From positions 192,001 to 256,000 of the forward strand of contig CAWAUM010000007.1 in the NCBI GenBank assembly GCA_963785235.1: a stretch of 64,000 nt of DNA. The letters run 5' to 3'. Origin of the DNA: an uncultured delta proteobacterium (GTDB taxonomy: Bacteria; Desulfobacterota; Desulfomonilia; UBA1062). Made by a program: the position numbers and the translations under genes. Positions 39,375-64,000 of the stretch are shown in pieces. How positions within the stretch are numbered: position 1 is the first letter of the stretch; each line of letters starts with the position of its first letter. Below the pieces are notes generated by a model. That model worked only from the letters and a program-made list of their open reading frames with translations, was not told the DNA's origin and searched no databases.

Positions 39375-39378
39375 ACGG

Positions 39379-45212: not shown

Positions 45213-45869
45213 TTATCTCACGCGAAATGCATGTCTCACGGTAGTAAGCTGTTCGATAAGGTTATCGACCCTGCGCTTAAGGGCCTCTTTGCTGTTTTCA
45301 TCGACCTCGGCAAGGACGTGGCTGTTGAAAAGGCTGATTATGCCGTGCAGGTCGGACCACAACTGGATGTTGATGTCGCGGATCAGGGCTTCATGATTAT
45401 CACACGCACCTATGAGCTCTTTGATGATGCCGGCAATGAGATGGAAGTTTTTCATGGCAGTCGCCTTCTCAAAGGCGGCAACGGGTTCCAGGACGGTTCC
45501 GATATAGTCGATATACTTGGGCGTGTGGAGATTGAACATGAGGTCATAATAGCCTGGGTAGGTGATCCCGAAATTGACATAGGCCCAGACCAGGGCCTTT
45601 ATTCTGTTTTGAAGGGCGGTTTTCTTACCCGATTCCCTGGAGAGCATGGAAAAGAGCATCTCAAAGCCTCTGACCCGGATCATGAGATTGATCTCGTCCT
45701 TGCTGGAATAGTAGTTATAGATATTTGCAGCCGTGATACCGAGACGCGCTGCGATTTTGCGCATGCTCAGCTTGTTGAATCCCTCCTCGATGATCAAGGC
45801 AAGGGCCACATCGAGTATCTTTTCCTTGGTATTGTTTATCTTATCCTGGGTCCAGGCCGCCTTTGGCAT
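45213..45869 (-). CDS. TetR/AcrR family regulator
   Basis: ILDVALALIIEEGFNKLSMRKIAARLGITAANIYNYYSSKDE HTH; C-terminal LWSDLHGI. Confidence 0.92.
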   Translation of the reverse strand: MPKAAWTQDKINNTKEKILDVALALIIEEGFNKLSMRKIAARLGITAANIYNYYSSKDEINLMIRVRGFEMLFSMLSRESGKKTALQNRIKALVWAYVNFGITYPGYYDLMFNLHTPKYIDYIGTVLEPVAAFEKATAMKNFHLIAGIIKELIGACDNHEALIRDINIQLWSDLHGIISLFNSHVLAEVDENSKEALKRRVDNLIEQLTTVRHAFRVR

Positions 45870-45899
45870 AAGGTCCTCTTTCAACTCCCCGAAGAGATA

Positions 45900-48517: not shown

Positions 48518-48740
48518 GGTACGGTATTTTTTAGAGTGCTTATACCGTGGAATGACCCAAAACGGGCATTCATGGCCCAATGAGAATCATTATATAACTC
48601 ATTGAATAGTTGTATGGAATAATTACCGGTTCTGTGAGAATGGGCCTGAGTGGACATGGAAGTCCCAATAGCGTAGGCTGTCGGAATATGGCATGAAAAA
48701 ATATCTAATAATATCAGATTAATACTTGAAGTATCCCTCT

Positions 48741-48755
48741 TGGCACCCTCCTTGC
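48741..48755 (+). promoter_or_regulatory. Sigma54 promoter for GRE 2
   Basis: TGGCAC-CCTCC-TTGC, perfect consensus. Confidence 0.85.
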
Positions 48756-48908
48756 TCATGAATGTCCTATGCATACGGTACGGTAGCATGTGTGAGGATG
48801 TGATGCACAGCAAGGGCATTCATCCTCAGGATAGAAGTTTTATCTGGCTTTATAAACATCACATGCACGCAATCCTTTTCAAGGAAAGACGAGCGGGGAG
48901 GTCCAATC

Positions 48909-51302
48909 ATGGCATGTACAATGAGGAGCAAGGTTTTACGGGATGAGACGTGCATCAAGTCACTGGGAAGGCTGGCTGACAAACGGGCGGTGCGCGAAGG
49001 GCTCAAGATCTGCCTGGAGCGGGCACGGATCATGACCGAAGTATTCAAGGCAAGCGAGGGAGAGCCCATGTGCATCCGCAGGGCCAAGGGACTGGCCGCG
49101 GTCCTGGACAACATGACCCTTTTCTCCCGAGATAAGGAGCTCATTGCAGGCTGCTTTGCAAGCTCGGAAAAGGCATGCCCGACCTACCCTGAGCTCTACT
49201 GGAGGTGGCTTGAAAAGGCTGTTGAAACCAAGCCCGACTATGCCTCCATGCTGACCGAGGTGGGCAAACAGGAGCTGTTCGCCATCCACGAGTACTGGAA
49301 ACCCTTTTCCATCCATGGCCGGGAGCGTGACTATATCCCTCCCGGAAGGTCCTGGAGGATAGGCGACTTCATCACGGGCGGATGGATGTGGCAGTGGGAG
49401 ATCTCCACGCCCAACTACGAGAAGATCCTGAGTATAGGACTCAGTGGGATTATTGCGGAGATCGACAAGAAGCGCTCCGAGGTCCTGTCCGACATCTCCA
49501 TCCCGACCGAGAAGCGCATGAAGATGATCGATGAGCTGACCGCCATGAAGATTTCCACCGAGGCGGCAGCACGGTGGGGCCGGCGATATGCGAAGATGCT
49601 CCAGGAGCACAAGCTTACCGTGAAGGACAAGGCGAGGCGCTCAGAACTCGACAAGATGATCGAGGCATGCTCCCAGGTACCCGCAGGGCCGGCTCGCAAC
49701 CTGCACGAGGCACTGCAGTGCTTCATCATGATCACCTTTATCGTCAACTATATCGACCAGCCCCAGGTGGGCAACGGCATCCGCTTTGACAAGATCTTCG
49801 GGCCATATCTTGAAAAGGATATCAAGGCAGGCGTGCTCAGCCGTGAGCAGGCCAAGGAACTGGTGGAAGGGGTCTGGGTGAAGATGCAGGAGGGGGGATA
49901 TGTTCAGCCGCCCCAATGGGTGAACAACGGCGGCGGCGGGCTTGGTTTCCAGACCATCACCCTAGGCGGCACGGATGAAACGGGAAAGGACATCACCAAT
50001 GACATGACCTACCTGGCCCTGAAGGTAACCGGAGAGCTCCAGACCATTGCCCCGCAGATTGCGGTTCGTATCCATGACAATACGCCCAAGGAGCTCTACC
50101 AGGCCATCTTCAGGTGCGTACGAACCGGATGCGCCCAGCCGGCGGTGTTCAATGACCAGGTAAACCTGCTCAGGCTCGAAGGCCTCGGATGCTCAAAGGA
50201 AGAGGCGAGGCTCTATTCCATCAACAACTGCATGCAGCCGGTCATACCCGGAAAGAACTGCCACTACCGTGCAGGGCACAGCGGAGGATTTGTGCTGCCC
50301 ATGTGCCTGAACCTGGCCCTTGATGAAGGCAGGTTCAGCGGCAAGGTGGTAGGTGCGCCGACACCCTCCATCTCAAAGCTGAAGACCTATGATGATGTGT
50401 GGAAGGCATTCTGCGCCCAGGTGGAGTTTGCTGCCGAGACCCTGGGCATCATCTCCAACATTGCGGATGTACTCCTGAAAGAGTACATCCCCCGGCCGTT
50501 CCTCTCGGCCCTGCTGGACGGCAATATCGAGAAGGGATGCGATATGAGGGACTGGGAATATCTGGGCCTGCGGCATCACCTGGTCTTCGGGGTCAACAAT
50601 GCGGCAGACGGCCTGGCAGCCATAAAAAAGCTCGTCTTTGACGAGAAGAAGCTTACTCTTGAAGAGTACCTGAAGGCGGTCCAGGGCAACTACCAGGGCA
50701 AGTATGAGAGCACCTACCGCCTGATAGAACAGGGCGCACCCAAATTCGGCAACGACGATGACTATGTGGATTTCATCAGCCGAGACATAATGCTCAAGAT
50801 ACGCCAGGAATGCGACAAGTGGACAGACATCTATGGCAAGCCTTTTATCTTAGACGGCACCACTGCATCGGCCCCCATTGGTGCAGGAATGATCCTGCCT
50901 GCTACCTGCGATGCGCGCATGGAAGCAGAGCCTTTTCATGACGGCAGCATCTCCCCGGTCCAGGGAAGAGACACCTCGGGCCCCACTGCCACAGTAAGGT
51001 CTGTGGGCAAGGTGAAGACGCTTGAGACCGGCAACTTCCTTCTGAACCAGAAGTTCATGCCCTCCTTCTTTGATGTGCAGAACTACGAGGTCATGGAAGG
51101 GTACATGAAAACGCTGCGTGACATGGGCATCCATCATGTGCAGTTCAACTGCGTGGACAAGGGCACCATGCTCGAGGCCAAGGCGCATCCCGATAAATAC
51201 CGGGACCTCATCGTACGGGTTGCAGGGTATTCCGCTTACTTCATAGACCTGGACAACCGGATGCAGGACGAGATCATCAAGAGGACCGAGCAGGCGTTCT
51301 GA
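48909..51302 (+). CDS. Glycyl radical enzyme 2, uncharacterised class (fumarate-adding-enzyme-like motifs)
   Basis: ERAR..TE..K..EGEP..IRRAK, TITLGG, Cys loop NNCMQP, PKFGNDDDYVD, LLNQKF, HVQFN, VRVAGYSAYF. Confidence 0.9.
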   Translation: MACTMRSKVLRDETCIKSLGRLADKRAVREGLKICLERARIMTEVFKASEGEPMCIRRAKGLAAVLDNMTLFSRDKELIAGCFASSEKACPTYPELYWRWLEKAVETKPDYASMLTEVGKQELFAIHEYWKPFSIHGRERDYIPPGRSWRIGDFITGGWMWQWEISTPNYEKILSIGLSGIIAEIDKKRSEVLSDISIPTEKRMKMIDELTAMKISTEAAARWGRRYAKMLQEHKLTVKDKARRSELDKMIEACSQVPAGPARNLHEALQCFIMITFIVNYIDQPQVGNGIRFDKIFGPYLEKDIKAGVLSREQAKELVEGVWVKMQEGGYVQPPQWVNNGGGGLGFQTITLGGTDETGKDITNDMTYLALKVTGELQTIAPQIAVRIHDNTPKELYQAIFRCVRTGCAQPAVFNDQVNLLRLEGLGCSKEEARLYSINNCMQPVIPGKNCHYRAGHSGGFVLPMCLNLALDEGRFSGKVVGAPTPSISKLKTYDDVWKAFCAQVEFAAETLGIISNIADVLLKEYIPRPFLSALLDGNIEKGCDMRDWEYLGLRHHLVFGVNNAADGLAAIKKLVFDEKKLTLEEYLKAVQGNYQGKYESTYRLIEQGAPKFGNDDDYVDFISRDIMLKIRQECDKWTDIYGKPFILDGTTASAPIGAGMILPATCDARMEAEPFHDGSISPVQGRDTSGPTATVRSVGKVKTLETGNFLLNQKFMPSFFDVQNYEVMEGYMKTLRDMGIHHVQFNCVDKGTMLEAKAHPDKYRDLIVRVAGYSAYFIDLDNRMQDEIIKRTEQAF

Positions 51303-51368
51303 AAAGGAATTTAAGGCCATCCCTTAAGTGAAGATGTACGGGGTGGTGGCAAAGGTCCGAAAAGCCGG

Positions 51369-51417
51369 CCCGTTCAAATCTGTCAACTCGCTTTTTGAGT
51401 TGATGGATTTGAACGGG
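51369..51417. repeat. Hairpin sharing CCGTTCAAATC termini with 3816-3901
   Basis: cccgttcaaatctgtcaactc...gagttgatggatttgaacggg; 21-bp stem with two G-U pairs. Confidence 0.75.
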
Positions 51418-51507
51418 TAAAATGAAGGAAAGGCGTGAACATGGGCAGGTCCGTGTTTAATGGCTATTTACACTTGATCGGGATTGATTTGAGCGTCCAG
51501 GTTCTGG

Positions 51508-51561
51508 CCTTTTCAAAGGATCAATCTCCCCGAAAAGGGGGAGATTGATCCTTTGAAAAGG
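51508..51561. repeat. Perfect 24-bp inverted repeat just upstream of activase 2
   Basis: ccttttcaaaggatcaatctcccc-gaaaag-ggggagattgatcctttgaaaagg. Confidence 0.85.
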
Positions 51562-51582
51562 TTGATGAAAAATGGAGTTGCA

Positions 51583-52515
51583 ATGACACGACAAGCATCA
51601 GAAGAGCATGAAAGAACACAGGGAACCATATTCAACATCCAGAACTTCAGCATCCATGACGGCCCTGGAATAAGGACCACAATGTTCCTCAAGGGCTGTC
51701 CGTTGCACTGCCCCTGGTGCTCGAACCCCGAGTCCATATATCCGGCCATCCAGATCAAAATCTCGCCGGAGAAGTGCCGGGGGTGCAAAAAGTGCTCTGA
51801 TGCCTGCGAGAGCGGCGCCCTTTCAATGGAGAATGGAAAGGTCCGTTTTGAACACTCCTTATGTACGGATTGTCTTGCCTGTGCGGGTGTATGTGAAAGC
51901 GGCTGCATCACGAAAATAGGGTCACGTATCAGCGCTGATGAAGCAATAGAAAAGCTCCTGAGGGACAGGCCCTTTTATGAGAATACCGGCGGCGGCGTCA
52001 CTGTATCAGGGGGGGAACCCCTTTTCCAGCAAGAATTCGTATCAGAGATATTGAGCAGGCTCCACAAGCATGGTGTGAATACGGCTGTTGATACCTCGGG
52101 CTTTGCCAGCCGGCCGGCCTTTGCCGGCATCATCGATAACGTGGACCTTTTTCTTTTCGACATCAAGCACCTGGACAGGGAAAAACACCGAAGCACCATA
52201 GGCGTAGACAATGATGTCATCCTGAACAACCTTAAGGAGTGCGCAGCCCGGACTCAGGTTTGGACCAGGACCCCTCTCATACCGGGATTCAACGATGACT
52301 TCGAGGTTACCGACGCTATCGCCAGGCTTGCACATGAAGTCGGTGCCCAGCGATGCTGCTTCCTGCCCGTGCATCGATGGGGCGAGCACAAGTATTCCCG
52401 GCTCGGTCTTGCGAATCCTTATGAAAACATCCGAGAATTTTCAGCAGGGGAGATTGAAATATTCAAAGAGCGGTACAAAAGACAGCAAGGATTCGTGTTT
52501 TTCGAGGCGGCATAA
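51583..52515 (+). CDS. Glycyl-radical enzyme activating enzyme 2
   Basis: IFNIQNFSIHDGPGIRTTMFLKGCPLHCPWCSNPES, two-ferredoxin insert, GGVTVSGGEP, DTSG, RTPLIPG; GGAG RBS before ATG 51583. Confidence 0.93.
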   Translation: MTRQASEEHERTQGTIFNIQNFSIHDGPGIRTTMFLKGCPLHCPWCSNPESIYPAIQIKISPEKCRGCKKCSDACESGALSMENGKVRFEHSLCTDCLACAGVCESGCITKIGSRISADEAIEKLLRDRPFYENTGGGVTVSGGEPLFQQEFVSEILSRLHKHGVNTAVDTSGFASRPAFAGIIDNVDLFLFDIKHLDREKHRSTIGVDNDVILNNLKECAARTQVWTRTPLIPGFNDDFEVTDAIARLAHEVGAQRCCFLPVHRWGEHKYSRLGLANPYENIREFSAGEIEIFKERYKRQQGFVFFEAA

Positions 52516-52710: not shown

Positions 52711-54555
52711 ATGAAGAACAGGCTTACCAGCAACATCAAGGAAGAGCAGGCTGTGGATCTCACCAGAAAGATCATTGAGCTTGAAGAATCAACCCGCGGG
52801 TATGAGCGCAGGAGCACGTTCTTCGAACTGCTCATCAGGAGCCTGCCAGGACTGTTCTACGCCTTTGATGACAAGTTCCAGGTGCATATGTGGAACAAGA
52901 ATGTAGAGAAGGTCACCGGGTATATTGCCGATGAAATCCCGGAGCATAGCCTCTTCGAACTGTTTGACGGTGATGACCTCAAGTTCATTCAGGATACCAT
53001 CCAGAATGTGTTCAAGACCGGCGAGGGAGTGGCGGAGGCGATCCTCATTACAAAAGACGGCAGGCGGATCCCCTATTTTTTTACAGGGGTCAGTGCAGTG
53101 ATCGAGGGCACGCCTTACCTCCTGGGTATGGGGCTGGATATCAGCATCCTGAAAGGGGCCGAAGCTGCGTTGCTGGAGAGTGAGGCCCTTTACCGCACCT
53201 TTGCCGCGCGCATGACCGAAGGAGTGACGCTCATTCATGAAGATAAATTCGTGTTCGTGAACAATGCCTTTGCCTCCATGCTCGGATTTTCCGATCCCAA
53301 TGAGATCCTTGGTCAGGATGTCATGGGCTTTGTGAGCAAGGAATTCGAGATGTATTTCAGGGAACTTTTCGAGTCCATCGTAAAGGGCATGTCAAAGGAA
53401 CGTTTTTTCCAGGCCCGGTGGATGAGGGACAAAAAACAGGAGATATGGGTAGAAGGCAGGGGCAACCTTATCCAGTGGAAAGGGAATCCTACCGTTCTGC
53501 TCACAGCACGCGACATCACCGAGACCAAGCTCAAAGAGATCTCCATGCAGGAGGAGGCCGCATACCTCAGAAGGGAAAACGTAACCCTGAGATCATCCAT
53601 TAAAGACCGTTACCGCTTCGGTGACATCATCGGCAAGAGCTCGGCTATTCAGGAAGTCTATGAGCTCATCCTCAACTCGGCAGCCACTGGTGCCAATGTC
53701 ATCATCTATGGCGAGTCCGGCACCGGCAAGGAGCTGGTAGCCAAGGCCATACACCAGTTTTCCAGCCGCTCCGCCAGTCCCTTTGTCCCGGTCAACTGTG
53801 CGGCCATACCCGATAACCTTATCGAAAGTGAATTCTTTGGTTATAAGAAGGGGGCCTTCACCGGCGCCAATACCGATAAACAGGGATATTTGGATATGGC
53901 CCACGGGGGGACCTTGTTCCTCGACGAGGTGGGCGAACTGGGGTTGAATCTCCAGGCTAAACTCCTTCGCGCCATAGAGGGCAGCGGCTATTCGCCGGTG
54001 GGCGGCAATATCACCAAACATTCGGATTTCAGGATTATCGCGGCAACCAACAAGAACCTGCTGGAGTATACGAAAAAGGGCCTCATGCGGGAGGATTTCT
54101 TCTACAGGATCCATATCATACCCATACAGCTCCCCGCACTCAGGCAGCGTAAAGATGACATACCTCTCCTGGTAGAGCACTTCTTGAGAATCTATTCCCC
54201 TGGAAAAAGACTTCCTTCCGTCTCGGGCCATGTGCTGGAGGCGCTCCAGAATTATGACTGGCCGGGCAATGTGCGTGAGCTGCAGAATGTCATCCAGCGT
54301 TATCTTACGGTAAAGAGGATCGACTTCCTTACCCCGGCAACCCAGGAGCCACCTGAGATCTTCAACCAGGCACAGGCCTCGCTGGACAAGGGTAAAAAGG
54401 ACCTCAAGCTTCATGACTACACCGAGAACATCGAGAAGGCAGTAATCATGGATGCGCTGAGCCAGCATCGCTGGAACAAGAGCAAGGCATCAGAGGCATT
54501 GATGATTTCCCGCAAGACACTTCAAAGAAAGATGAAACGGCTCGGGCTGGTGTGA
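52711..54555 (+). CDS. PAS-PAS sigma54-dependent transcriptional activator
   Basis: Two PAS domains (WNKNVEKVTGY; FVNNAFASMLGF), GESGTGKE, ESEFFGYKKGAFTGA, WPGNVRELQN, HTH. Confidence 0.93.
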   Translation: MKNRLTSNIKEEQAVDLTRKIIELEESTRGYERRSTFFELLIRSLPGLFYAFDDKFQVHMWNKNVEKVTGYIADEIPEHSLFELFDGDDLKFIQDTIQNVFKTGEGVAEAILITKDGRRIPYFFTGVSAVIEGTPYLLGMGLDISILKGAEAALLESEALYRTFAARMTEGVTLIHEDKFVFVNNAFASMLGFSDPNEILGQDVMGFVSKEFEMYFRELFESIVKGMSKERFFQARWMRDKKQEIWVEGRGNLIQWKGNPTVLLTARDITETKLKEISMQEEAAYLRRENVTLRSSIKDRYRFGDIIGKSSAIQEVYELILNSAATGANVIIYGESGTGKELVAKAIHQFSSRSASPFVPVNCAAIPDNLIESEFFGYKKGAFTGANTDKQGYLDMAHGGTLFLDEVGELGLNLQAKLLRAIEGSGYSPVGGNITKHSDFRIIAATNKNLLEYTKKGLMREDFFYRIHIIPIQLPALRQRKDDIPLLVEHFLRIYSPGKRLPSVSGHVLEALQNYDWPGNVRELQNVIQRYLTVKRIDFLTPATQEPPEIFNQAQASLDKGKKDLKLHDYTENIEKAVIMDALSQHRWNKSKASEALMISRKTLQRKMKRLGLV

Positions 54556-54747
54556 CCGGAAGTGGGCGCTTGTGACCCATGGATATCAATAAATCGACTT
54601 TGTATTTTAATAACAGCAAGTTATATGCTCCGATTTTATTTATACCCCTAGATCCGGGACACTTCTGTCCCACTGTCCATGTACCTGCCTTAATCCTGCC
54701 TTAAGAATACCTACGTAATATCAGCAGAGTAAATACGATTATCCTCT

Positions 54748-54762
54748 TGGCACTATCCTTGC
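54748..54762 (+). promoter_or_regulatory. Sigma54 promoter for the mutase-ass operon
   Basis: TGGCAC-TATCC-TTGC, perfect consensus. Confidence 0.85.
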
Positions 54763-54855
54763 TCTATCTTGGATAGGGACATGTAACCACAGATCTGATG
54801 TCTCAGCCTTTGAAGTTTTCTTGTTGATTGGCATGTTCCAGCGAAGGGGGTTCAC

Positions 54856-55326
54856 ATGGGTCAGGATTCAAAGATCCGCATTCTCATCGCCAAACCAGGT
54901 CTTGACGGGCATGAACGGGGCGCACACGTGGTGGCCTACGGGCTCAGGGACGAAGGCTTCGAGGTAATTTACACGGGCTTGCGCCAGACTCCAGAGCAGA
55001 TCGTTTCCGCAGCCGTCCAGGAAGATGTCGCCGTCATCGGTCTCTCCATCCTTTCGGGGGCTCACCTCTCGCTGACTAAAAAAGTCATGGAAGGCCTCAA
55101 GGCCAAAGGCGCAGAAGACATCCTGGTTACCGTTGGGGGCATCATTCCTGAAGGAGACAGAAAAGCCCTTGAAAAAATGGGTGTGGGCGGCATCTTCACC
55201 TCAGGCGCGAAGATCAAGGATATTGCGGCATTCATCCGCACAAAGCTCAGAGAAGAAATGCCGTATGAAGAAAATATGGGAATATTTGCTGAAGGTGCCC
55301 TAACCACTGTCAAGGACAGGACATGA
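54856..55326 (+). CDS. Acyl-CoA mutase small (cobalamin-binding) subunit
   Basis: KPGLDGHERG (DxHxxG), GLSILSGAH, VGGIIP. Confidence 0.95.
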   Translation: MGQDSKIRILIAKPGLDGHERGAHVVAYGLRDEGFEVIYTGLRQTPEQIVSAAVQEDVAVIGLSILSGAHLSLTKKVMEGLKAKGAEDILVTVGGIIPEGDRKALEKMGVGGIFTSGAKIKDIAAFIRTKLREEMPYEENMGIFAEGALTTVKDRT

Positions 55327-57071
55327 AGGACAATAGAAAAAAGATTGAAGAGGCTGCGAGGAAGTGGGAGGCTGAGATTCTCAATCCTCGCGTGAAGAGG
55401 TTTAACCTGGGCAAGAGTCCTACGAGCTTCCACACCCCCTTGTCAATGAATGGTTCTCAATTCCTGGAAAAAGTCGGATTTCCCGGCCAGTACCCGTTCA
55501 CTGCAGGGAACAATCCCTTTGACTTCTGGAACGCACATGCACGCTCAGCTGCAAAGCTCGGTTACCGGCCCGACTGGGGCGGAGCAGGCGGGGTCGGTAA
55601 ATACGGCGGGTTCGGAACCCCTGCCGATTATCGTGATTATTTATTGAGGATGCAGTCCATGGGACGCAAGGGCGGGCCCAACATCGCCTTTGACCTGGCG
55701 ACCCAGTGCGGATACGACTCTGACAGCCCCTATGCCGAGGGAGAAGTGGGCCGGGTTGGGGTTGCCATAGACTCTCTGCAAGACTTTGCAGTCATCTACG
55801 AGGCCTATACCGGAGATCTCGACATCGACAAGGTGCCGTCCAACTTCACCATCAATGCCCCTGCTGCAATCATCATCGCCATGTATGCCTGTCTTGCCAA
55901 GAAGCGTGGTATCCCGCTTGATAAGTTGAGGGGTACGCCCCAAAACGACATCCTCAAAGAATTCATCGCCCGAGGAACATACATTTATCCACCAAAGCCT
56001 TCCTTGAGGCTGTTCCGCGATACGTGCGTATTCTGCCGTAAGCACATGAGAGCGCTCAACATAAATTCCATCGGAGGCTACCATATGAGGGAGGCCGGAG
56101 CCACACGCACCCAGGATCTGGCATTCTCCATGGCCAACGGCATTGCCTATATCGAGGCCGGTCTCGAAGGCGGACTTGCCGTCGATGAGTTCGCGCCTGC
56201 ATTCACCTTCAATGCATTCGGCGGCAGCATGGAGATCTATAATGAAATAGCATTCCAGAGGGCGGCCCGCAGGATGTGGGCGCATATCCTCAAAGATCGC
56301 TTCGGCGCAAAAGATCCCAGGAGCATGATGATCCGCCAGCCCATCACGGCTCACATCGGATGCTCCAGCACCACGCTCCAGAGACCGCTCAACAATCTCG
56401 CCCGAGCCGTTGTCGGCGGAATGGCGGCCGGCATGTCCGGCGGCATTCCCGGTGCATTCCCTCCCTTTGACGAGCCGCTGGGGCTCGGACATTCCCAGGA
56501 GGCAGTCCAGCTACAGCTCGATGCCACCAGGATCATGATCTACGAGGCCAAGGTGACAGACGTATGCGATCCATGGGCTGGATCCTATTTTATGGAATCG
56601 ATCACGGACGCCACCGAGGAAGCGGCGGCAACCGAGATGGCAAAGATCGAGAAGATGGGGGGAGCGGTTGCGGCCATAGAAAACGGTTACATGCAAAAGG
56701 CAGTGGCCAAGAGTGCATACGAGCGCCAGAAGCTCATCGAGAAGCAGGAGGATTTCGTGGTGGGGGTGAACTGCTTTACTGAGGCTACCGAGATAGAGGT
56801 GTCAGTCAACCGCATGGTGGAAGCGACCTATGACCCAGGGCTCATGAAGACGGCCGAAGAGCGTCAGAAAAAAAATCTGGCCCGATTCAAGAGGGAAAGG
56901 CATGGCAAGGCTGTCCTTACCACTCTTAAGAATCTTAAAAGTCAGGCCGCAGACAAAGACAAGAACCTCATGCCCGCCATCTGTGAATGTGTGGAAAACG
57001 ACGCGACCCTCCAGGAGATCTGCGATGTGCTCCGCGAGGTCTTTGGTGAGTCCCAGCCCATAAAACTCTAG
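55323..57071 (+). CDS. Acyl-CoA mutase large subunit (methylmalonyl-CoA mutase family, divergent)
   Basis: PGQYPFT.G, AFDLATQ.GYDSD, GEVGRVGV, QNDILKEF..RGT, YHMREAGA, VVGVN. Confidence 0.92.
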   Translation: MKDNRKKIEEAARKWEAEILNPRVKRFNLGKSPTSFHTPLSMNGSQFLEKVGFPGQYPFTAGNNPFDFWNAHARSAAKLGYRPDWGGAGGVGKYGGFGTPADYRDYLLRMQSMGRKGGPNIAFDLATQCGYDSDSPYAEGEVGRVGVAIDSLQDFAVIYEAYTGDLDIDKVPSNFTINAPAAIIIAMYACLAKKRGIPLDKLRGTPQNDILKEFIARGTYIYPPKPSLRLFRDTCVFCRKHMRALNINSIGGYHMREAGATRTQDLAFSMANGIAYIEAGLEGGLAVDEFAPAFTFNAFGGSMEIYNEIAFQRAARRMWAHILKDRFGAKDPRSMMIRQPITAHIGCSSTTLQRPLNNLARAVVGGMAAGMSGGIPGAFPPFDEPLGLGHSQEAVQLQLDATRIMIYEAKVTDVCDPWAGSYFMESITDATEEAAATEMAKIEKMGGAVAAIENGYMQKAVAKSAYERQKLIEKQEDFVVGVNCFTEATEIEVSVNRMVEATYDPGLMKTAEERQKKNLARFKRERHGKAVLTTLKNLKSQAADKDKNLMPAICECVENDATLQEICDVLREVFGESQPIKL

Positions 57072-57086: not shown

Positions 57087-58070
57087 ATGGAAGACATGCT
57101 CAAGAGATTGATCGATAGAGCCAGGCAAGGAGACGAAAGGTCCCTTGCTCGGCTCATCTCGCATGTCGAAGACCGCAGGCCGGGCTGGAAGGACGCCATG
57201 AAGACCATGTACTCCCATACGGGCCGTGCATGTGTCATCGGGATTACGGGTTCTCCGGGGGCGGGCAAGAGCACCCTGGTGGGCGAGATCGCCAAGAGAC
57301 TTGCGGATGATGGCTGCACCATCGGCATTATCGCGGTTGACCCGTCGAGCCCGTTCTCGGGCGGGGCGCTGCTGGGAGACCGCATCAGGATGCGTGACAT
57401 CAGCACCGTTAAGGGCATCTTCATCCGGTCCATGGCTACCCGCGGTGTGCTGGGAGGCCTGTGCCAGGCGGCAAAAGACGTGGTGAGGATCATGGATTTT
57501 GCGCGCAAGGACGTGGTTCTCATCGAGACCGTGGGTGTGGGACAGGACGAGATCGAGGTGGTGAGCGCTTCCGACCATGTGATGCTTGTAACCTTTCCGG
57601 GAGGCGGTGACGGCATCCAGGCCATCAAGGCAGGCGTTATGGAGATCGCCGACCTGTTCGTGGTGAACAAGTCCGACCGCGGCGGCGCCGACGAGACGGC
57701 CTCTGAGATCTCGGCCATGCTCGATCTCTCAACCGAGACAAAAGAAGAGATACCGCCCGTCATCAAGACCTCGGCCGTCACCAGGGATGGACTGACTGAG
57801 CTCGTGACCATCCTCCTGGAATACATCCATCAGAAAAAGGCCGGGCTTCCCATCCGGAAGGCCAATGTGCGTCAGGAGATTCTGGGCATCCTTGAGCGCG
57901 AGGTCACCAGCCTCATCAGGGAGCGGATCATGGGCAACGGGAAACTGGATGCAGACATCGAGAGGATAATGGCAGGCAAAAGCGATCCCTACAGCGCGGC
58001 AGACGGAATAATCGCCAGGTTCGCTTTCATGAAGGGCTTGGACAAAACACACGAAGGAGACCCTCAATGA
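57087..58070 (+). CDS. meaB: MeaB/ArgK GTPase chaperone of B12 mutase
   Basis: GITGSPGAGKST, AVDPSSPFSGGALLGDRIRM, IETVGVGQ, IQAIKAG, VNKSD. Confidence 0.95.
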   Translation: MEDMLKRLIDRARQGDERSLARLISHVEDRRPGWKDAMKTMYSHTGRACVIGITGSPGAGKSTLVGEIAKRLADDGCTIGIIAVDPSSPFSGGALLGDRIRMRDISTVKGIFIRSMATRGVLGGLCQAAKDVVRIMDFARKDVVLIETVGVGQDEIEVVSASDHVMLVTFPGGGDGIQAIKAGVMEIADLFVVNKSDRGGADETASEISAMLDLSTETKEEIPPVIKTSAVTRDGLTELVTILLEYIHQKKAGLPIRKANVRQEILGILEREVTSLIRERIMGNGKLDADIERIMAGKSDPYSAADGIIARFAFMKGLDKTHEGDPQ

Positions 58071-59410
58071 GTGGAAATGGTGCAGGCTTTACCGCAAAGC
58101 TCGCCTCGTTCATCTCTCATACGGACGCTGATAAAATCCCGCAGTGGGCGTATGAGCATGCCAAGGTGGCATTCATGGACTGGCTTGCCGTTACCTTTGC
58201 CGGCAAGGACGACCCGTTGGTGGCAAAGCTCATGGACTATACCGACATGATGGGGGGCAATGAGCAGGCCACCATTATCGGCTATCACCGGAAAAAGGAC
58301 GTGAGCAGCGCAGCCCTCATCAACGGAAGCGCCTCTCATGCCCTGGATTACGATGACACGCTGGTCTCCTTCCTGGGGCACCCTTCCGTGACCATCTTCC
58401 CGGCCCTGCTGGCCCTTTCCGAGTGGAGGGGCAAATCCGGCCGTGAATTCCTCACCGCCTACCTCATCGGCCTGCAGGCCGGAGGCACCGTGGGTGCCTG
58501 CGCAAGCCTCGACCATTACATGGCAGGATGGCACGCCACCTCGACTTTGGGGCACCTTGCTTCTGCAGCAGCGTGCTCGCGCCTGCTTGGCCTGTCCGAG
58601 AAACAGACCGTCTATGCCCTGGGCATCGGCGGCACCCAGGCCTCAGGGCTCAAGCGCGTGTTCGGGACCATGTGCAAGCCATTCCATGCAGGCCGGGCTT
58701 CCCAGTCAGGCCTCATGGCGGCCCTTCTGGCAGAGCAGGGGTTTACGAGCGCCGAGGACATCCTGGAAGGCCCCCAGGGTTTCTTCGAGGCCCTGAAGGG
58801 CAAGGTGAACGAAGATATCGTCGCTATGCTGGGTCTGGGATGGGACGTTCAGAACCTTTCGCAGAAATACCATGCGTCCTGCCATGCCACCCATTCACCT
58901 CTTGAGGCGGCCCTGACTGTGATCAAATCCGAAAACATCACGCTCGATAATATCAAGACCATCACAGTCCATGCCTCCACCCTATCCCTGCAGGCGGCAG
59001 GCAAGACCGAGCCGGCCACCGGTCTGGAGGGAAAATTCAGCATTTCCTACTGTGTGGCCAATGCCCTGCTGCGAGGCGTGACAGGCATGCAGGCCTTCAC
59101 GGACGAGAAGGTGAATGACCCAGCGGTAAGGGAGATTATGAAGAAGATCAAGGTGATCAACGACCCTGAGATAAAGGCACTGGAATCCCTTGTGGAGGTG
59201 GAGACTGGGGACGGTAAAAGGTTCAGTTCCTTTTCAGACATCCTCCAGCAGATCCCGCCCCTGGAGGTCAAGAAGGAGCGCGTGGCCAGCAAGTTCCTCG
59301 ATCTGTGCGGGCCTGTGCTGGGGAAGAGGAAATCCCTTGCGCTGAAGAAAAGGATCGAGGCCATGGATACGCTTCAGGACATGGGAGATATGGCGGAGAG
59401 TCTCTTATGA
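58067..59410 (+). CDS. MmgE/PrpD family protein
   Basis: [39 protein letters not shown]. Confidence 0.92.
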
Positions 59411-59478: not shown

Positions 59479-60518
59479 ATGGAAGAGCGTGTGCTGATCA
59501 CCGATATTGCCAGGTTCGCCGTGAATGACGGTCCGGGAATTAGGACAAACGTTTTCATGAAAGGCTGTCCTCTTAAGTGTGCCTGGTGCCACAATCCCGA
59601 AACCATTGCAGCAAAGCCCCGAATTATACTGGAAGAGCAGGCTCTGTGTCGCAGTGCGGGGCATGTCTTGAGGTCTGCCCGAAGGATGCCATCATGCCTC
59701 CCATAGCACCCGAGCGCTCAAGCAGCGAAGGCTCAACCTATCACAAGATAAACCGCACGAGGTGCGATGGTTGCATGAAGTGCGTGGATGTCTGCAGGTA
59801 TGAGGCCCTGCAGGTGACGGGTAAAGCCATGGGCATATCCGAGATCCTTGACGAGGTGGAGCGGGACAGGCCATTCTACAACAATCGGGCAGGAGGCATG
59901 ACCGTAAGCGGCGGCGAGCCCACGGCGCATTCTGCATTCACTCTGGAGCTGCTCAAGGGGGCAAGGGCGCGTTCGATCCACACCTGCCTTGACACCAATG
60001 GATACTGCGACTTCAGTGTCTTAAAGGAGATTGCGGAATATACGGATATCGTCCTTTTTGACCTGAAGCACCTTGACCCTGGAAGGCACCTCGAAAAGAC
60101 CGGGGTCAATAACAGCCTCATCCTGAAAAACCTTGAACTGCTCTGCGGAACCGGCTCTGAGATCTGGATACGCATTCCCGTGGTTCCGGGGTTCAATGAC
60201 ACCATAGAGTTCCATCGGGAGGCATCCGTTTTTCTCGCCTCCCTTGACGGACATGTGACACGCATCGATCTCCTGCCGTTCCACAACTGGTGCCAGGATA
60301 AGTATTCCTGGCTCGGTATCGACTGGTCATATCGCGAAACAGAAGCCCTGGATCCCTCGTTCCTGGAGATCCATGCGGACGTCTATCGCCAATATGGCCT
60401 TGTGACAACAGTGGGCGGGTCAGGGTTTGAAGACACAGGCACGGCAGCCAAGCCCGGGGAGTACTCGGAGACTTCGAGCCGTAAAGGCAATATCATAAGC
60501 CAGATGGAAAAGGTGTGA
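59479..60518 (+). CDS. assD: Alkylsuccinate synthase activating enzyme (frameshifted near 59620-59650)
   Basis: [36 protein letters not shown], ferredoxin insert, SGGEP, DTNG, RIPVVPG, LLPFH.WC..KY.WLG; immediately upstream of the ass structural genes. Confidence 0.85.
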
Positions 60519-60574
60519 TGAGTTTAAACATGAAGCCAAAATTAAAAAATGAGCAGTGAAAGGGGGTGATATTG

Positions 60575-60739
60575 ATGACGTTATGCAAGGAGTGCAAGAA
60601 ATTTTTTCCCGTACAGGGAGACCCGAAAAAGGGGGATTGCGTTTCAAGAGAGGTTGATCCGAGGCAGGCCTACTACAAGGCGAAGCCCGTAGTTGCGGAT
60701 AAGGATGCGAGTTCGTGCTCTTCGTTTGAGAAGAGATGA
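60575..60739 (+). CDS. assC: Alkylsuccinate synthase gamma subunit (AssC/MasC-like), 54 aa, below the ORF-track cutoff
   Basis: Manual translation MTLCKECKKFFPVQGDPKKGDCVSREVDPRQAYYKAKPVVADKDASSCSSFEKR; CxxC...GDCV...C pattern of BssC/MasC; GGGGGT RBS. Confidence 0.9.
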   Translation: MTLCKECKKFFPVQGDPKKGDCVSREVDPRQAYYKAKPVVADKDASSCSSFEKR

Positions 60740-60812
60740 AAACAGATCAGGGACTGACCAAAAAAGATGGAAGTCAGCTGAGAAGTCAAACGGTAACAAG
60801 GGAGGAAATATT

Positions 60813-63320
60813 ATGGCAGAGCCGGCAGCGAACATGAGTATAAAGGAACTGGAAAAAAATCAGAAATGGTGGTGGGCCGCAGAGAAGAAGCGATCGAAGA
60901 GGTTGGATTACCTCAGAAAGGCCATATGGAAAAAAGGGGCGATCGGGGGGATTTATCCCATCGGATTGAATATCGATCTGGAGCAGGCCAGACTGCATAC
61001 CGAAAAGGCGCGCGAACTGGAGTTTGCACCTGACCCGTATGTCGTAAAATTTGCCAAGATGTTCGCTCATTACCTGGATAACAAGACGATCTTCATCACC
61101 GATAAGGCCCAGCTCGTGGGCTACGTGGGCAGCCTGCCCAATACGATCTCCTGGAATCCAAGCTTAGCCTCGATCCTGAATTACGAGGTTATCAATGATT
61201 CTTCGGCCATCCCCGAGCCTATGGATGCGAGTCTGAAGATAATCAATGAGGTGGCCGCTTACTGGTCCGGAAAATCTGATCTGGACAAGATCCTGCCCCA
61301 CATGGATCTGGACGACATGACAAAGGTCCTCTCCGGTGCAATCGGGTGGGGTGTCCCGCTCTCCAGAGGTGGTTATTCCGGCAAGGATTACGAGTACATC
61401 ATGACCGGCCGGCGGGCCTTTTTAGACATCATCGCCGAACTCGACCGCCAGATCGACGAGGCGGACGCCAAGGTCCATACACAAGGCGCCACCACGGAAA
61501 TGAGCGATCTGTATGACAAGATGAACATGTGGGAGGCCATGAAGATAACCCTCGAGGCCGGTATCCGTCATGCTGGGCGCTATGCTCGTCTGGCCAGGAT
61601 TATCGCGGAAAATTACGAGACCGACAATGACCGCAAGGAAGAGCTCTTACAGATCGCCGAGGCCTGCGAACAGGTGCCTGCCAGGCCGCCTAGAACACTG
61701 CAGGAGTCGCTCCAGTATGACCTCTTCATCCAGCTCTTCAGCCGGACCGAGGCCATCGAGGGCGCCTGGCCGTCCCGGCCGGACTACTATCACGGGCCGT
61801 ATTACGACAAGGACGTCAACATCGACAAGCGCCTCACCAAGGAGCAGGCCATGGATCTGGTCGGTGAGTTCCTGATCCGGGCCGCCGAGGTCTCTCAGTA
61901 CAAGCCCAAATGTGCCCGGGAAGGGCTTCAGGGAATAGAAGGGACCTGGGTCTGGACTTTGGGCGGGGTAAACAAGGACGGGAGCGACGCCTGCAACGAC
62001 ATGACGATCGCGCTCTTACAGGCCGCCCGTCTGGTCAGGGTCGCCAATCCGACCTTCAGCTTCCGCTGGCACCCCAAGGTCAAGGACGAGGTTCTGCGCG
62101 AATGCTTTGAGTGCATCCGCCATGGGCTGGGTTATCCCTCCATGCGCAATGATCCGATTCTGATCGCCAATTCCATGAACTGGCACGGACATCCTATCGA
62201 AGAGGCCCGCACCTGGGTGCACCAGGCCTGCATGTCTCCCAGCCCGACCACCAAGCATGGATTTCAGCCCATGCGCATGGCCAACGCCACAGCCAACTGC
62301 GCCAAGATCATCGAGTATGTCATGACCAGTGGCTTTGACCCGGTCATAAACATGCAGATTGGGGCCGAAACGCCCGATGCTGCCACCTTCACCGATTTCG
62401 AGCAGGTGTACGAAGCATGGATCAGCCAGATGAAAACCATCTTCAGTATCCTGGTCCGTCCGGTGAACCGGGCCAGAATCCTGGCCTCCAAGTGGACCCC
62501 GCGACCGTACCTTTCGGCCATCTCCGAACGCTCGGTCGAAAGCGGCCTGGAAGTTATGGATCCTTCGATCAGCCGCGGGAATTCCTGGATAACGGCCTTT
62601 ACCTGGGTTGAAAACATCGACAGCCTGGCAGCGATAAAAAAACTGGTCTTCGATGACAAGAAATATACCATGGCCGAGCTCAAGCAGGCCATCGCCGACA
62701 ACTGGGAAGGCCATGAGGAGATGCGGCTGGATTTCGTCCGCAATGCACCCAAGTGGGGCAATGACGATGACTATGTCGACAACATCATGCTCAGGTGCCT
62801 GCGGGATGTGGCCAAGTTCGGACGCGTACTCAAGGACCCAATGGGCAACAACTGGCCGATTCTACCCGAAAATGTCAGCGGTAATATTCACTATGCCAAT
62901 ATCGTGGGGGCCTTGCCCAACGGGCGCCGGCTGGGAGACGCCCTGTATGACGGCGGCATCTCGCCCGGGCCGGGGCTCGATAAAAAGGGGCCGACCGCGG
63001 TGCTGAATTCGTGTGCCAAGATCGACCATATCTCCGACGGACGGGCCTTCCTCTTGAACCAGAGACTGTCCCCCACCCAGCTCGCCGGGGAAAAAGGATA
63101 CCAGCTCTGGAAATCGTACATGAACACCTGGTACGCACTCGGCATGGATCATATCCAGTTCAACTGCGTGTCGGACGAGACCCTCAGGAGCGCCCAGAGA
63201 GACCCGGAGAAGTACACGGAAGTCATCGTGCGGGTTGCGGGCTACAGCGCCCACTTCGTGGATATCAGCCGCAAGACGCAGGACAACATCATCCAGCGTA
63301 CGGTGCAGGGACTGGGTTAA
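60813..63320 (+). CDS. assA: Alkylsuccinate synthase ((1-methylalkyl)succinate synthase) alpha subunit, 835 aa
   Basis: WWWAAEKKRSKRLDYLRKA N terminus, REGLQGI.GT.VWTLGG, FECIRHGLGYP, HQACMSP with Arg 15 residues after the Cys, YDGGISPGPG, RVAGYSAHF; GGAGG RBS. Confidence 0.93.
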   Translation: MAEPAANMSIKELEKNQKWWWAAEKKRSKRLDYLRKAIWKKGAIGGIYPIGLNIDLEQARLHTEKARELEFAPDPYVVKFAKMFAHYLDNKTIFITDKAQLVGYVGSLPNTISWNPSLASILNYEVINDSSAIPEPMDASLKIINEVAAYWSGKSDLDKILPHMDLDDMTKVLSGAIGWGVPLSRGGYSGKDYEYIMTGRRAFLDIIAELDRQIDEADAKVHTQGATTEMSDLYDKMNMWEAMKITLEAGIRHAGRYARLARIIAENYETDNDRKEELLQIAEACEQVPARPPRTLQESLQYDLFIQLFSRTEAIEGAWPSRPDYYHGPYYDKDVNIDKRLTKEQAMDLVGEFLIRAAEVSQYKPKCAREGLQGIEGTWVWTLGGVNKDGSDACNDMTIALLQAARLVRVANPTFSFRWHPKVKDEVLRECFECIRHGLGYPSMRNDPILIANSMNWHGHPIEEARTWVHQACMSPSPTTKHGFQPMRMANATANCAKIIEYVMTSGFDPVINMQIGAETPDAATFTDFEQVYEAWISQMKTIFSILVRPVNRARILASKWTPRPYLSAISERSVESGLEVMDPSISRGNSWITAFTWVENIDSLAAIKKLVFDDKKYTMAELKQAIADNWEGHEEMRLDFVRNAPKWGNDDDYVDNIMLRCLRDVAKFGRVLKDPMGNNWPILPENVSGNIHYANIVGALPNGRRLGDALYDGGISPGPGLDKKGPTAVLNSCAKIDHISDGRAFLLNQRLSPTQLAGEKGYQLWKSYMNTWYALGMDHIQFNCVSDETLRSAQRDPEKYTEVIVRVAGYSAHFVDISRKTQDNIIQRTVQGLG

Positions 63321-63334
63321 CTCTGGAGGGTTAG

Positions 63335-63359
63335 GGGGGTTGCCGCCCGGGCGACCCCC
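63335..63359 (+). terminator. GC-rich hairpin between assA and assB
   Basis: GGGGGTTGCC-GCCCG-GGCGACCCCC followed by TTT. Confidence 0.45.
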
Positions 63360-63389
63360 TTTGAGCAATGAGGCAAAGGAGATGTGAAA

Positions 63390-63758
63390 ATGGCAAGAAG
63401 AAATCGGGATGAATATGCAAAGGCCTCGGGGGTATTCGGCCGGACGGCGGCTGATCTGGAAAAGCAGTCGAATGCCGAAACAATCCCTGAAAAGACCTGC
63501 GGCGTATGCAAGCATTATCTGGAGAGCTCCTGGTCGAGCGATGGAAGGGGCAGTTGCAAGCAACTGAAAGAGGGGTCCGATATCACCAGTGATCCCCCCG
63601 TCTTCAATCTGGAGGGGAAAAACGGGTACCTGCTGAGAATCCTTACCGATGCCGCCAGGTGCACGTATTTCGAAAAGAGTGAATTCATCGATCATGACGG
63701 CCAGGAATGCAGTGACCCCATATACCGTCGCTCGATGAGGCAGCTCATGGACAAGTAA
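63390..63758 (+). CDS. assB: Alkylsuccinate synthase beta-type subunit (AssB/MasB-like)
   Basis: 122 aa with CGVC...SDGRGSC...C...C.DP.YRRS; position directly after assA. Confidence 0.8.
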   Translation: MARRNRDEYAKASGVFGRTAADLEKQSNAETIPEKTCGVCKHYLESSWSSDGRGSCKQLKEGSDITSDPPVFNLEGKNGYLLRILTDAARCTYFEKSEFIDHDGQECSDPIYRRSMRQLMDK

Positions 63759-63794
63759 GGATAATTCAAACCACAACCAAAGGAGGAAGAGAAC

Positions 63795-64000
63795 ATGAAG
63801 TGTATAGAGTGTAATTACGAGGCCCCGGTTGATAAATTCCGTTACCTCTACAACGCCCGGATCGATTCATCGCTTACGCTGCGGCAGTGTCCCAACTGCC
63901 AGGCCTGGCTGGCCGTGGATGAACTGACCAGTTCGGTCAAGCAGAAGGTCGGCCCGGGCGAGGCTCCCTGGGGCAAGTCGGCCGGTATCGAGGGTCTGGC
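63795..64000 (+). CDS. masE: MasE-like small rubredoxin-type subunit (truncated by the window end)
   Basis: Manual translation MKCIECNYEAPVDKFRYLYNARIDSSLTLRQCPNCQAWLAVDEL...PWGKSAGIEGL; two CxxC motifs; AGGAGG RBS. Confidence 0.85.
   Translation, partial: MKCIECNYEAPVDKFRYLYNARIDSSLTLRQCPNCQAWLAVDELTSSVKQKVGPGEAPWGKSAGIEGL

Follow-up and report, generated by a model that had tools for sequence, protein, structure and literature searches.

A predicted stand-alone glycyl radical enzyme beside the alkylsuccinate synthase genes of an uncultured Desulfomonilia bacterium

The GRE gene, its activase and the nearby ass operon

The 64,000-nucleotide (nt) stretch of DNA analysed here (the window; positions 192,001 to 256,000 of contig CAWAUM010000007.1, assembly GCA_963785235.1) comes from an uncultured delta proteobacterium of the Desulfomonilia, and carries a gene for a glycyl radical enzyme (GRE) on the same island as the genes of an alkylsuccinate synthase (ass). 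Judged by its sequence, this GRE belongs to no CHARACTERISED GRE class and falls in a family without a characterised member. The narrow subclade around it, recognised by the motifs C-M-Q-P ... H-Y-R-A-G-H, is almost confined to genomes encoding alkylsuccinate synthase.

The GRE gene (48909..51302, plus strand) begins with ATG and encodes 797 amino acids (aa) with both GRE domains (PF02901, 6e-143; PF01228, 3.8e-28). Its glycine loop, R770-V-A-G773-Y-SAYFID-L-DNRM-Q-DE-I-IK-R, matches the fingerprint RVxG[FWY]x6-8[FL]x4Qx2[IV]x2R as quoted by a 2026 review (PMC13450708). The cysteine loop reads S-I-N-N-C441-M-Q-P, with Arg454 at Cys+13 within ...HYRAGHSGG. The residues of this protein marked for comparison are Cys441, Arg454, His457, His556, Asp649, Thr651 and Gly773. 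An AlphaFold2 (AF2) model has the GRE fold (pLDDT 90.0, pTM 0.92), and the catalytic Cys, the two domains and a modelled fold at a template-modelling (TM) score of ~0.9 to GRE structures place it in the GRE superfamily (PFL-like division). Cys466, within a conserved 'LPxCL' motif, was considered as a second radical residue and dropped, the motif being found also in the eliminase-type paralogues of the genome.

The protein has the length of its relatives, which it matches end to end in the protein search, and its reading frame is whole although the assembly holds many split genes. Pairwise dN/dS is 0.10 against the related loci L013 and L014, 0.06 against L016 and 0.12 against L021. By these sequence measures the gene is intact, under selection and strongly conserved. 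The genome has about nine GRE loci, none of which besides this one encodes a protein more than 33% identical to the target; the others comprise one AssA (ACMSP), one GACVGS type and six GC[VL]E types, among the six a split GRE at 42191-45189.

A radical SAM activating enzyme with a two-cluster ferredoxin insert (51553..52515, plus strand) starts 250 nt after the end of the GRE gene and provides the cognate activase expected of a GRE. It scores 323.7 bits on TIGR02494 against a cut-off of 174.35, the Fer4 insert occupies residues 68-120, the family model aligns from residue 26 onward, and translation probably begins at an internal ATG. On the BssD model it reaches 218 bits, below the cut-off of 496. 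Among subclade loci that could be assessed, the activase lies directly 3' of the GRE in 16 of 22 (17 counting L037).

The alkylsuccinate synthase set (60566..64000) lies on the same strand and consists of a gamma-like 57-aa open reading frame (ORF; 60566-60739), an AssA/MasD-type catalytic subunit running from a probable start at 60813 to 63320 (Cys loop ACMSP, Arg at +15; 1241 bits against MasD), a beta-like 124-aa ORF (63384-63758) and a rubredoxin/delta-like ORF that starts at 63795 and is cut by the window end. It is preceded by an AssD-like activase of alkylsuccinate synthase (59577..60518, plus strand). Just past the window end, the ass operon is followed by another rubredoxin/delta-like ORF (G000:C7:256416-256616), which shares 76% identity with that at 63795.

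A scan of the window's ORFs found no Cys-rich small ORFs beside the GRE; as a positive control, the same scan did detect the ORFs flanking AssA at 60566-60739, 63384-63758 and 63795 onward. Likewise, tblastn with the window's gamma-, beta- and delta-like ORFs plus a BssC returned nothing beside the target GRE in 27 subclade loci, and its matches in this genome and the subclade loci lay only beside AssA genes. The GRE may use the ass small subunits in trans. The main descriptive statements of a preliminary description of this DNA are thus borne out: a 797-aa GRE with the loop NNCMQP and an Arg at +13, a ferredoxin-insert activase of its own, no beta or gamma ORFs, and strong divergence from the nearby AssA (31% identity, 9.4 kb off).

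Family, class and phylogenetic position

Of 7999 candidates scored in a protein search, 362 matched at E <= 1e-50, and the best 120 of these were listed; the residue counts given below cover 28 sequences of the target's subclade and 84 of the wider family, 112 in total. These listed matches include 36 clusters at 61-90% identity and one at 51%, and the rest form a shell at 42-47%. Where a source is named, the 61-90% clusters come from Desulfomonilia, Desulfosalsimonadaceae or 'Deltaproteobacteria' metagenome-assembled genomes (MAGs), and the 42-47% shell includes Chloroflexi/Dehalococcoidia, Smithellaceae, Thermodesulfobacteriota and a Jordarchaeaceae MAG. Among the matches listed, the whole family shares the loop N-N-C-M-x-P-x-I-P-G-K-N, and Cys441 is invariant (112/112). 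In the subclade, N439, N440, C441, Q443, P444, H452, Y453, R454, A455, G456 and H457 are invariant, and in the wider family position +2 is mostly Val (66 of 84) and +13 mostly Ile (54). The Arg at +13 is therefore no family trait, being present in 26 of the 84 wider-family sequences and in 28/28 of the subclade.

The 2026 review lists seven GRE classes and describes whole clades that remain unvalidated (PMC13450708). All NCBIfam equivalog models scored the target far below their cut-offs; the best value, 457 bits against a required 678, came from the generic PFL2-3 subfamily model. According to the review, C-x-E is retained in eliminases and isomerases, and C-C is the mark of PFL/TdcE (PMC13450708). 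The target has C-M-Q, Gln occupying Cys+2 in 28/28 subclade sequences, so that the C-x-E of the 1,2-eliminases and isomerases is absent, and N440-C441 stands where pyruvate and ketoacid formate-lyases have two adjacent Cys. Compared with the loop C-M-S-P of the X-succinate synthases (XSS), the target's C-M-Q-P retains Met and Pro, and Ser is replaced by Gln in 28/28 subclade sequences. Small subunits are known only for HPAD, benzylsuccinate synthase (BSS) and (1-methylalkyl)succinate synthase (MASS; PMC13450708), and the small [4Fe-4S] subunits of XSS (beta and gamma; delta in MASS) are not found beside this GRE. With the phenylacetate decarboxylase PhdB, whose loop is G-C-V-Q-S and in which Trp495, Tyr691 and His327 are essential, the target shares only the Gln; membership of the PhdB class was accordingly rejected on primer-derived motifs (PMC7079210), the trees containing no PhdB row. 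Two published clades proved to be different things. The Atribacterial 'FAE' clade has beta and gamma subunits and is ~55% identical to BssA (PMC6776118), and the Hermodarchaeota 'Ass/Bss' is an Archaeoglobus-PflD-like 'GC' clade (PMC8163825). A literature search found no description of a GRE with an NNCMQP-type loop or of a second GRE in an ass island, and the extracts of the Smithellaceae comparative genomics study (PMC13685792) make no mention of a second GRE.

The position of the family was examined in trees with the window AssA and a BssA from a canonical bssDCAB locus (1571 bits to TutD) as XSS references, together with C. butyricum glycerol dehydratase (GDH), Klebsiella CutC, L. salivarius PflB, E. 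coli YbiW and PflD, and four of the genome's own GRE paralogues. The BssA reference was supplied by the best match (472 bits) in a BssD family search of 401 genomes, none of which passed the cut-off. In the maximum likelihood (ML) tree (IQ-TREE, LG+C20 PMSF, 24 rows, 822 columns; UFBoot/SH-aLRT), the family is recovered at 100/99, XSS at 100/100 and XSS plus the family at 98/97, and a quick 27-row tree agrees. XSS and the family stay together under LG+G4 (support 95), after removal of PflB and the GACVGS row (100) and when the Cys-loop columns are dropped (94). A clade uniting the family and the CxE enzymes is rejected by an approximately unbiased (AU) test (delta lnL 23.5, p 0.0024), the tested group having been named only after the tree had been seen. 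Overall, in ML trees the family appears as the sister group of the XSS, outside the clade of BssA and AssA/MasD. The earlier proposal of a new GRE class akin to XSS agrees with this position and with the lack of any equivalog or class motif. The GRE phylogeny that had been suggested as a check, here with the references named above, went in its favour, and raw similarity scores favour dehydratases.

Distribution and sigma54 architecture

When reference genomes were scanned, 27 loci of the subclade (63-97% identity) and nine of the wider family turned up. The subclade hosts are Smithella (SCADC, M82, SDB_sulfate1 and others), Syntrophaceae, Desulfobacteraceae/Desulfobacterales, Desulfosalsimonadaceae, Desulfomonilia and 'Deltaproteobacteria' MAGs. 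AssA at an identity of at least 56% is present in 20 of the 24 reference genomes that bear the subclade, compared with 15 of 400 in an even background sample of genomes of the phylum, and the co-occurrence with assA, which the preliminary description had proposed as a check, is thereby borne out. In the same 400 genomes, the family at E <= 1e-150 occurs in 34 and the strict subclade in two, both of which have AssA. A family member is present in 12 of 15 AssA-positive and 22 of 385 AssA-negative genomes (odds ratio 66, kin not being independent), and the overlap of family and AssA spans seven of eight AssA-positive genera and five of six families. In this genome (G000) and in G402, G403, G408, G409, G412 and G422, the subclade GRE and AssA lie on one contig, 9-19 kb apart; two genomes of the same genus as the window, G115 and G209, lack both. 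Recurrent neighbours of the GRE are B12-binding/mutase/MeaB genes, MmgE/PrpD, carboxyltransferase and PYC_OADA-biotinyl (transcarboxylase) subunits and malate dehydrogenase, and in addition enoyl-CoA hydratase/3-hydroxyacyl-CoA dehydrogenase, thiolase and bioBFDA; PMC13685792 names this gene set the ancestral ass island.

The GRE operon is preceded by a sigma54 (-24/-12) promoter, TGGCACCCTCCTTGCT (48741..48756, plus strand), 152 nt before the GRE ATG. It is an exact match to TGGCAC-N5-TTGCT, and the earlier claim that the gene has its own sigma54 promoter therefore stands. Upstream of it are a 9-mer, TAATATCAG (48709..48717, plus strand), which lies 32 nt upstream of TGGCAC at both promoters described here, and a dyad, GGAC-N6-GTCC (48652..48665, plus strand), a candidate activator site 89 nt upstream of the -24 element. 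The second promoter, TGGCACTATCCTTGCT (54748..54763, plus strand), lies 92 nt before the mutase small-subunit gene and has a second dyad, GGGAC-N6-GTCCC (54657..54670, plus strand), 91 nt upstream of its -24 element. These two near-identical promoters flank a gene for a sigma54-dependent activator (52711..54555, plus strand; PAS sensor domains, AAA+ Sigma54_activat and HTH_8). One faces the GRE and the other a string of mutase, MeaB, PrpD, assD and assCAB genes. In the string, a B12-binding mutase subunit (54856-55326), a mutase large subunit (55323-57071), a MeaB/ArgK GTPase (57087-58070) and an MmgE/PrpD-family protein (58067-59410), all on the plus strand, precede the AssD-like activase, and this mutase/MeaB/PrpD set matches the ancestral ass island of PMC13685792.

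The window holds three exact sigma54 matches against 0.09 expected, a number reached in 0 of 100 shuffles, and the 3.9-Mb genome holds 16. Dyads number three in the window and 59 in the genome, and among the 16 exact sigma54 sites only those at 48741 and 54748 have a dyad within 200 nt upstream. The dyad recurs at the identical 89-nt spacing in L013 and L016. Of 24 subclade loci examined, 14 have a TGGCA[CT]-N5-TTGC[AT] site in the 400 nt upstream of the GRE, and of the 24 that could be assessed for a sigma54 activator gene, 11 have one close to the GRE. In the relatives L015, L021, L022, L037, L030 and L036, the activator gene is surrounded by two or three sigma54 promoters. They face the GRE and PrpD-assD in L015, the GRE and MeaB-PrpD-assD-assA in L037, and the operons of the GRE, the transcarboxylase and the mutase in both L021 and L022. 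In the Smithella loci L030 and L036 they face GRE-activase-activator, malate dehydrogenase-transcarboxylase and bioFDA. Since two near-identical promoters with dyads flank the activator gene, the GRE and the alkane-activating genes are probably induced together, and we infer that the activator would bind the dyads. Overall, co-occurrence, physical linkage and the common sigma54 architecture uphold the earlier link to alkane degradation, and do so far more strongly than the preliminary description had grounds for, and the GRE is likely to be part of an alkane/alkylsuccinate regulon.

The third exact sigma54 promoter of the window, at 11508-11523 on the minus strand, has no dyad, and a second sigma54 activator gene is present at 18172-19692. 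Directly upstream of the GRE operon, a fatty-acid cis/trans isomerase gene (CTI, PF06934; 46180-48517, plus strand) reads as frameshifted, and a TetR gene (45213-45884, minus strand) lies near it. In other bacteria CTI is a membrane solvent-stress enzyme. A GRE module on the minus strand (36970-45189) includes a GRE of the GCVEP type, extended at its N-terminus by ~200 aa, its activase (41204-42055), an SDR (40314-41084), an ADP-forming acyl-CoA ligase-like gene (37881-39551) and a PTO1314-like radical SAM protein (36970-37875). Its GRE, the third in the window (42191-45189, split in two ORFs), is of the GCVEP eliminase type and not an Ass. Long genes that are split into overlapping ORFs include this one (two or three pieces), the carbamoyl-phosphate synthase large chain (four pieces, 31886-35156) and CTI (two pieces), and the genome's GRE loci C13, C1 and C9 are split as well; the splits are either assembly indel errors or real pseudogenes.

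Several features were noted in the loci of relatives. A protein of ~585-735 aa without a Pfam or NCBIfam match is encoded between the activator and the PrpD/mutase genes in L014, L015, L021 and L037 (e.g., L037:5247-7250) and is absent from the window; a recurrent neighbour of ~700 aa ('c18') matched no Pfam or NCBIfam family. L044, in a Deltaproteobacteria MAG, has four tandem GRE genes, one of them a wider-family member, and L040 has two tandem GREs adjoining mutase genes. In the Dehalococcoidia/Chloroflexi MAGs L041, L046 and L047, the wider-family GRE is followed by an Amidohydro_2 protein in place of an activase, a conserved pairing of another kind. The closest relatives, L013 (97%), L014 (85%) and L022 (75%), are in MAGs labelled 'uncultured Bacteriovoracaceae', probably an automatic mislabel because it fits poorly with the Desulfobacterota-type gene content.

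Active site, candidate reactions and known systems

BSS and MASS structures have just two fumarate contacts in common, the oxyanion hole of the Cys loop and an Arg at Cys+15 (Arg508 in BSS, Arg492 in MASS), and the hydrogen-bond donor is Gln707 in BSS and Glu690 in MASS (PMC12358834). Modelling of BSS adds Tyr197, Ser199, Trp613, Asn615 and a hydrophobic pocket (PMC4848970). In an L-INS-i alignment of 121 sequences, the corresponding columns, given as BssA/AssA/target, begin with those of the Cys loop, Met494/Met/Met442, Ser495/Ser/Gln443 and Pro/Pro/Pro444. All three proteins thus have Met at Cys+1 and Pro at +3, and Val occupies +1 in GDH and CutC. The fumarate-binding column is Arg508/Arg/Gly456, with Gly in 28/28 subclade sequences, and Arg454 aligns on Lys506, two residues before Arg508, the target loop being one or two residues shorter. 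The equation of the Arg at +13 with the fumarate Arg508, suggested in the preliminary description, consequently fails in the alignment. Its interpretation overall is therefore supported in part: a new clade, XSS kinship and an alkane link are upheld, and this analogy is not upheld by alignment.

The second fumarate contacts of XSS are also replaced, the columns being Trp613/Trp/His556 and Gln707/Glu/Thr651 (His and Thr each in 28/28 subclade sequences). Further polar residues enter at Ile384/Gly/Asn340, Leu492/Ala/Asn440 and Val705/Leu/Asp649, the Asp being present in 112/112 family sequences. Other pocket positions are still aromatic or small (Trp163, Phe347, Phe560, Ala653, Ala655). By sequence, the pocket would thus retain the loop scaffold of XSS and some of the aromatic walls, would be more polar, and would not be the known fumarate site.

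Our preferred reading, which we put just short of an even call, is that the protein is a new stand-alone GRE which acts on a carboxylate intermediate of the alkane pathway by radical chemistry other than elimination. The activase would install a radical on Gly773, from which it would pass to Cys441, and the resulting thiyl radical would abstract hydrogen from a carboxylate-bearing substrate. The latter would be held by the amides of the XSS-type Cys-Met-x-Pro loop and by Arg454, His457, His556, Gln443 and Asn340, a polar set invariant in the subclade. All eliminases and isomerases have a Glu in the Cys loop; as this GRE lacks it, its substrate radical would be resolved by carbon-carbon chemistry or by hydrogen transfer (addition, 1,2-shift or inversion) and not by acid/base 1,2-elimination, and we regard such non-eliminative chemistry as rather likely. 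The enzyme would work without Fe-S accessory subunits. The preferred substrate would be (1-methylalkyl)succinate or its CoA ester, or a compound of the methylmalonyl/succinyl branch that regenerates fumarate, that is, a step after alkane activation. That the step is a post-activation one on a succinate-type intermediate is possible, if somewhat doubtful; the XSS product radical is exactly of that type. The pathway also has gaps that a radical enzyme could fill, epimerase and mutase functions being unassigned in Smithella: alpha-methylacyl-CoA racemase is reported missing from alkane-degrading Smithella MAGs (PMC6776118), the canonical methylmalonyl-CoA mutase is not catalogued, and de novo B12 synthesis is described as lost (PMC13685792).

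A number of observations weigh against this reading. Against solved structures, the GRE itself scores 400 bits with GDH, 387 with diol dehydratase, 371 with BssA, 343 each with HypD and CutC and 303 with MasD, and the family profile scores 659 with GDH, 615 with CutC, 611 with diol dehydratase, 588 with HypD, 570 with BssA and 531 with MasD; the best solved structures are ~30% identical to the GRE. In a Foldseek search with the model, BSS chains come top (TM 0.91-0.93, root-mean-square deviation 2.5-2.9), the predicted match to dehydratases (TM 0.90-0.91) lies within 0.02 of them, and the rank of BSS is therefore not decisive. An ESM Atlas search with the GRE returned only generic GRE clusters. 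The trees leave out HPAD, IAD, PhdB, AAD, HypD, IslA, Archaeoglobus PflD and the 'GCVY' orphan clade, the XSS rows form long branches in them, and the group put to the AU test was chosen post hoc. Asp649, His457 and His556 could supply acid/base groups, so that elimination by another route is possible, and the replacement of hydrophobic XSS residues by Asn340 and Asn440 means that the substrate may be polar and unrelated to alkanes. With regard to distribution, AssA was not found with the query used in four of the 24 subclade genomes (G406, G416, G421 and G423), wider-family members occur in 22 AssA-negative genomes, and the co-occurrence counts are not phylogenetically independent. In the Desulfobacteraceae-type loci L024, L025 and L038, neither an activase nor a sigma54 activator adjoins the GRE, and the dyads are putative activator sites. 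With regard to expression, 22 sequencing runs were listed for this DNA, and no run on record as RNA contains it.

A more far-reaching reading, which we consider quite improbable, makes the GRE a B12-independent, racemase-independent, cofactor-free radical isomerase of the alkylsuccinate pathway. The succinyl moiety would be bound as XSS bind their product, and the hydrogen that XSS deliver last would be abstracted again. The succinyl-type radical would then either invert, giving epimerisation of (1-methylalkyl)succinate, or undergo a 1,2 carbon-skeleton shift, a reaction normally attributed to the B12 mutase, from alkylsuccinyl-CoA to alkylmalonyl-CoA, or from methylmalonyl to succinyl. Such an isomerase would parallel known pairs of B12-dependent and glycyl radical enzymes, namely the diol dehydratases and the ribonucleotide reductases. 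If the isomerase were real, it would also make good the reported lack of an alpha-methylacyl-CoA racemase, a methylmalonyl-CoA epimerase, a canonical mutase and de novo B12 synthesis in alkane-degrading Smithella (PMC6776118, PMC13685792).

The GRE might instead be a single-subunit hydroalkylase that adds a second and perhaps functionalised substrate (an alkene, an alcohol, a fatty acid or another hydrocarbon class) to fumarate, with Arg454 in the role of Arg508/Arg492 and no need for beta and gamma subunits. The sister position to XSS, the C-M-x-P loop common to BssA and AssA, the aromatic or small positions Trp163, Phe347, Phe560, Ala653 and Ala655, and the co-occurrence and apparent co-regulation with ass would all suit such an enzyme; an Arg is present in 28/28 subclade sequences on the same loop, one or two residues off the Arg508 column, and further XSS subclasses are expected by the review (PMC13450708). 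However, Gly456 occupies the Arg508 column itself, His556 replaces the Trp613 kept in BssA and AssA, Thr651 sits in the column of the donor Gln707/Glu690, and Ile384 and Leu492 are both Asn. All characterised XSS have beta and gamma subunits (PMC13450708), of which there are none here, the ~60-aa N-terminal extension of BssA is missing, and raw similarity does not favour XSS. We regard a hydroalkylase as unlikely.

A catabolic enzyme (lyase, dehydratase or decarboxylase) acting on some polar compound outside alkane metabolism, with Asp649 or His as acid/base where eliminases use the Cys-loop Glu, would explain the top sequence scores with glycerol/diol dehydratases and CutC, the polar pocket (Asn340, Asn440, His457, His556, Asp649, Thr651) and a length of 797 aa without subunits, as in stand-alone eliminases. 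The presence of the wider family in 22 genomes that have no AssA and in MAGs of Chloroflexi and Asgard, and the six other eliminase-type GREs in the genome, point the same way, and the island location would then arise because accessory catabolic genes travel together. By contrast, the target has no CxE, and E-to-Q mutants of HypD and CutC are inactive (PMC7079210). The trees and the AU test set the family apart from the CxE enzymes, the subclade tracks AssA (20/24 genomes), and the promoter/dyad design is common with the ass operon. In addition, the neighbours are acyl-CoA and dicarboxylate genes, the genes that usually accompany eliminases (for microcompartments, transporters or aldehyde handling) do not appear among them, and a lyase of this kind seems unlikely on balance. 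A PhdB-like decarboxylase removing CO2 from a carboxylic acid via hydrogen-atom-transfer chemistry would fit the Gln at Cys+2 (PhdB Q484E/A/L mutants are inactive, PMC7079210), the invariant subclade Arg at +13, a functionally important position in PhdB (Trp495), and a carboxylate-binding Arg suited to an acid substrate, but is highly improbable, as the loop and strand motifs differ except for the Gln and equivalents of His327 and Tyr691 are not evident.

The preferred reading, non-eliminative chemistry on a carboxylate intermediate, would bear on a pathway understood only through fumarate addition, the later epimerisation, rearrangement and fumarate regeneration having been assigned by analogy. 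Several post-activation steps have no candidate genes in Smithella (PMC6776118, PMC13685792), and the GRE is a candidate for a missing radical step or a second activation. Since the accessory subunits and activases of XSS are a practical bottleneck (PMC13450708), stand-alone relatives of XSS are attractive for biocatalysis, and the subclade could serve as an extra marker gene for alkane-degrading anaerobes.

Among known systems, BssA/TutD (4PKC, 4PKF, 5BWE) resembles the GRE in its fold, its top Foldseek rank, the Cys-Met-x-Pro loop, a basic residue on the following loop, the sister relationship of the families and the ferredoxin-insert activase. It is 31% identical to the GRE, which has no beta or gamma subunits and lacks BssA's N-terminal extension of ~60 aa, as alignments start at BssA residue 64-68, and the pocket changes from Ser495 to Gln443, from Trp613 to His, from Gln707 to Thr and from Ile384 and Leu492 to Asn, with Gly in the Arg508 column. 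MasD/AssA (9O8U, and the copy in the window) shares with the GRE the island, the type of sigma54 promoter and dyad, and C-M-x-P; it differs in sequence (31% identity for the window AssA, 303 bits for MasD), in having gamma-, beta- and delta-like ORFs, in its Arg at +15 instead of +13, and in the Glu690 equivalent, which is Thr651 in the GRE. The B12-independent glycerol/1,2-propanediol dehydratases (1R8W, 5I2A, 9RCO) have the top raw scores, a similar length, a stand-alone subunit and a PFL2-type activase, whereas their G-C-V-E-P with a catalytic Glu contrasts with N-C-M-Q-P, and they stand apart in the ML trees and the AU test. Finally, PhdB, the only characterised GRE with a Gln at Cys+2 (PMC7079210), is like the target in that residue, and its primer motifs (Table S3 of the same paper), A-V-A-G-C-V-Q-S-I-I-G-G, D-G-T-W495-E-A-R and P-S-A-Y691-S-V, belong to an eliminase-like scaffold, in contrast to the N-N-C-M-Q-P-V-I-P-G-K-N, H-Y-R-A-G-H and D-G-T-T-A-S-A of the GRE described here.

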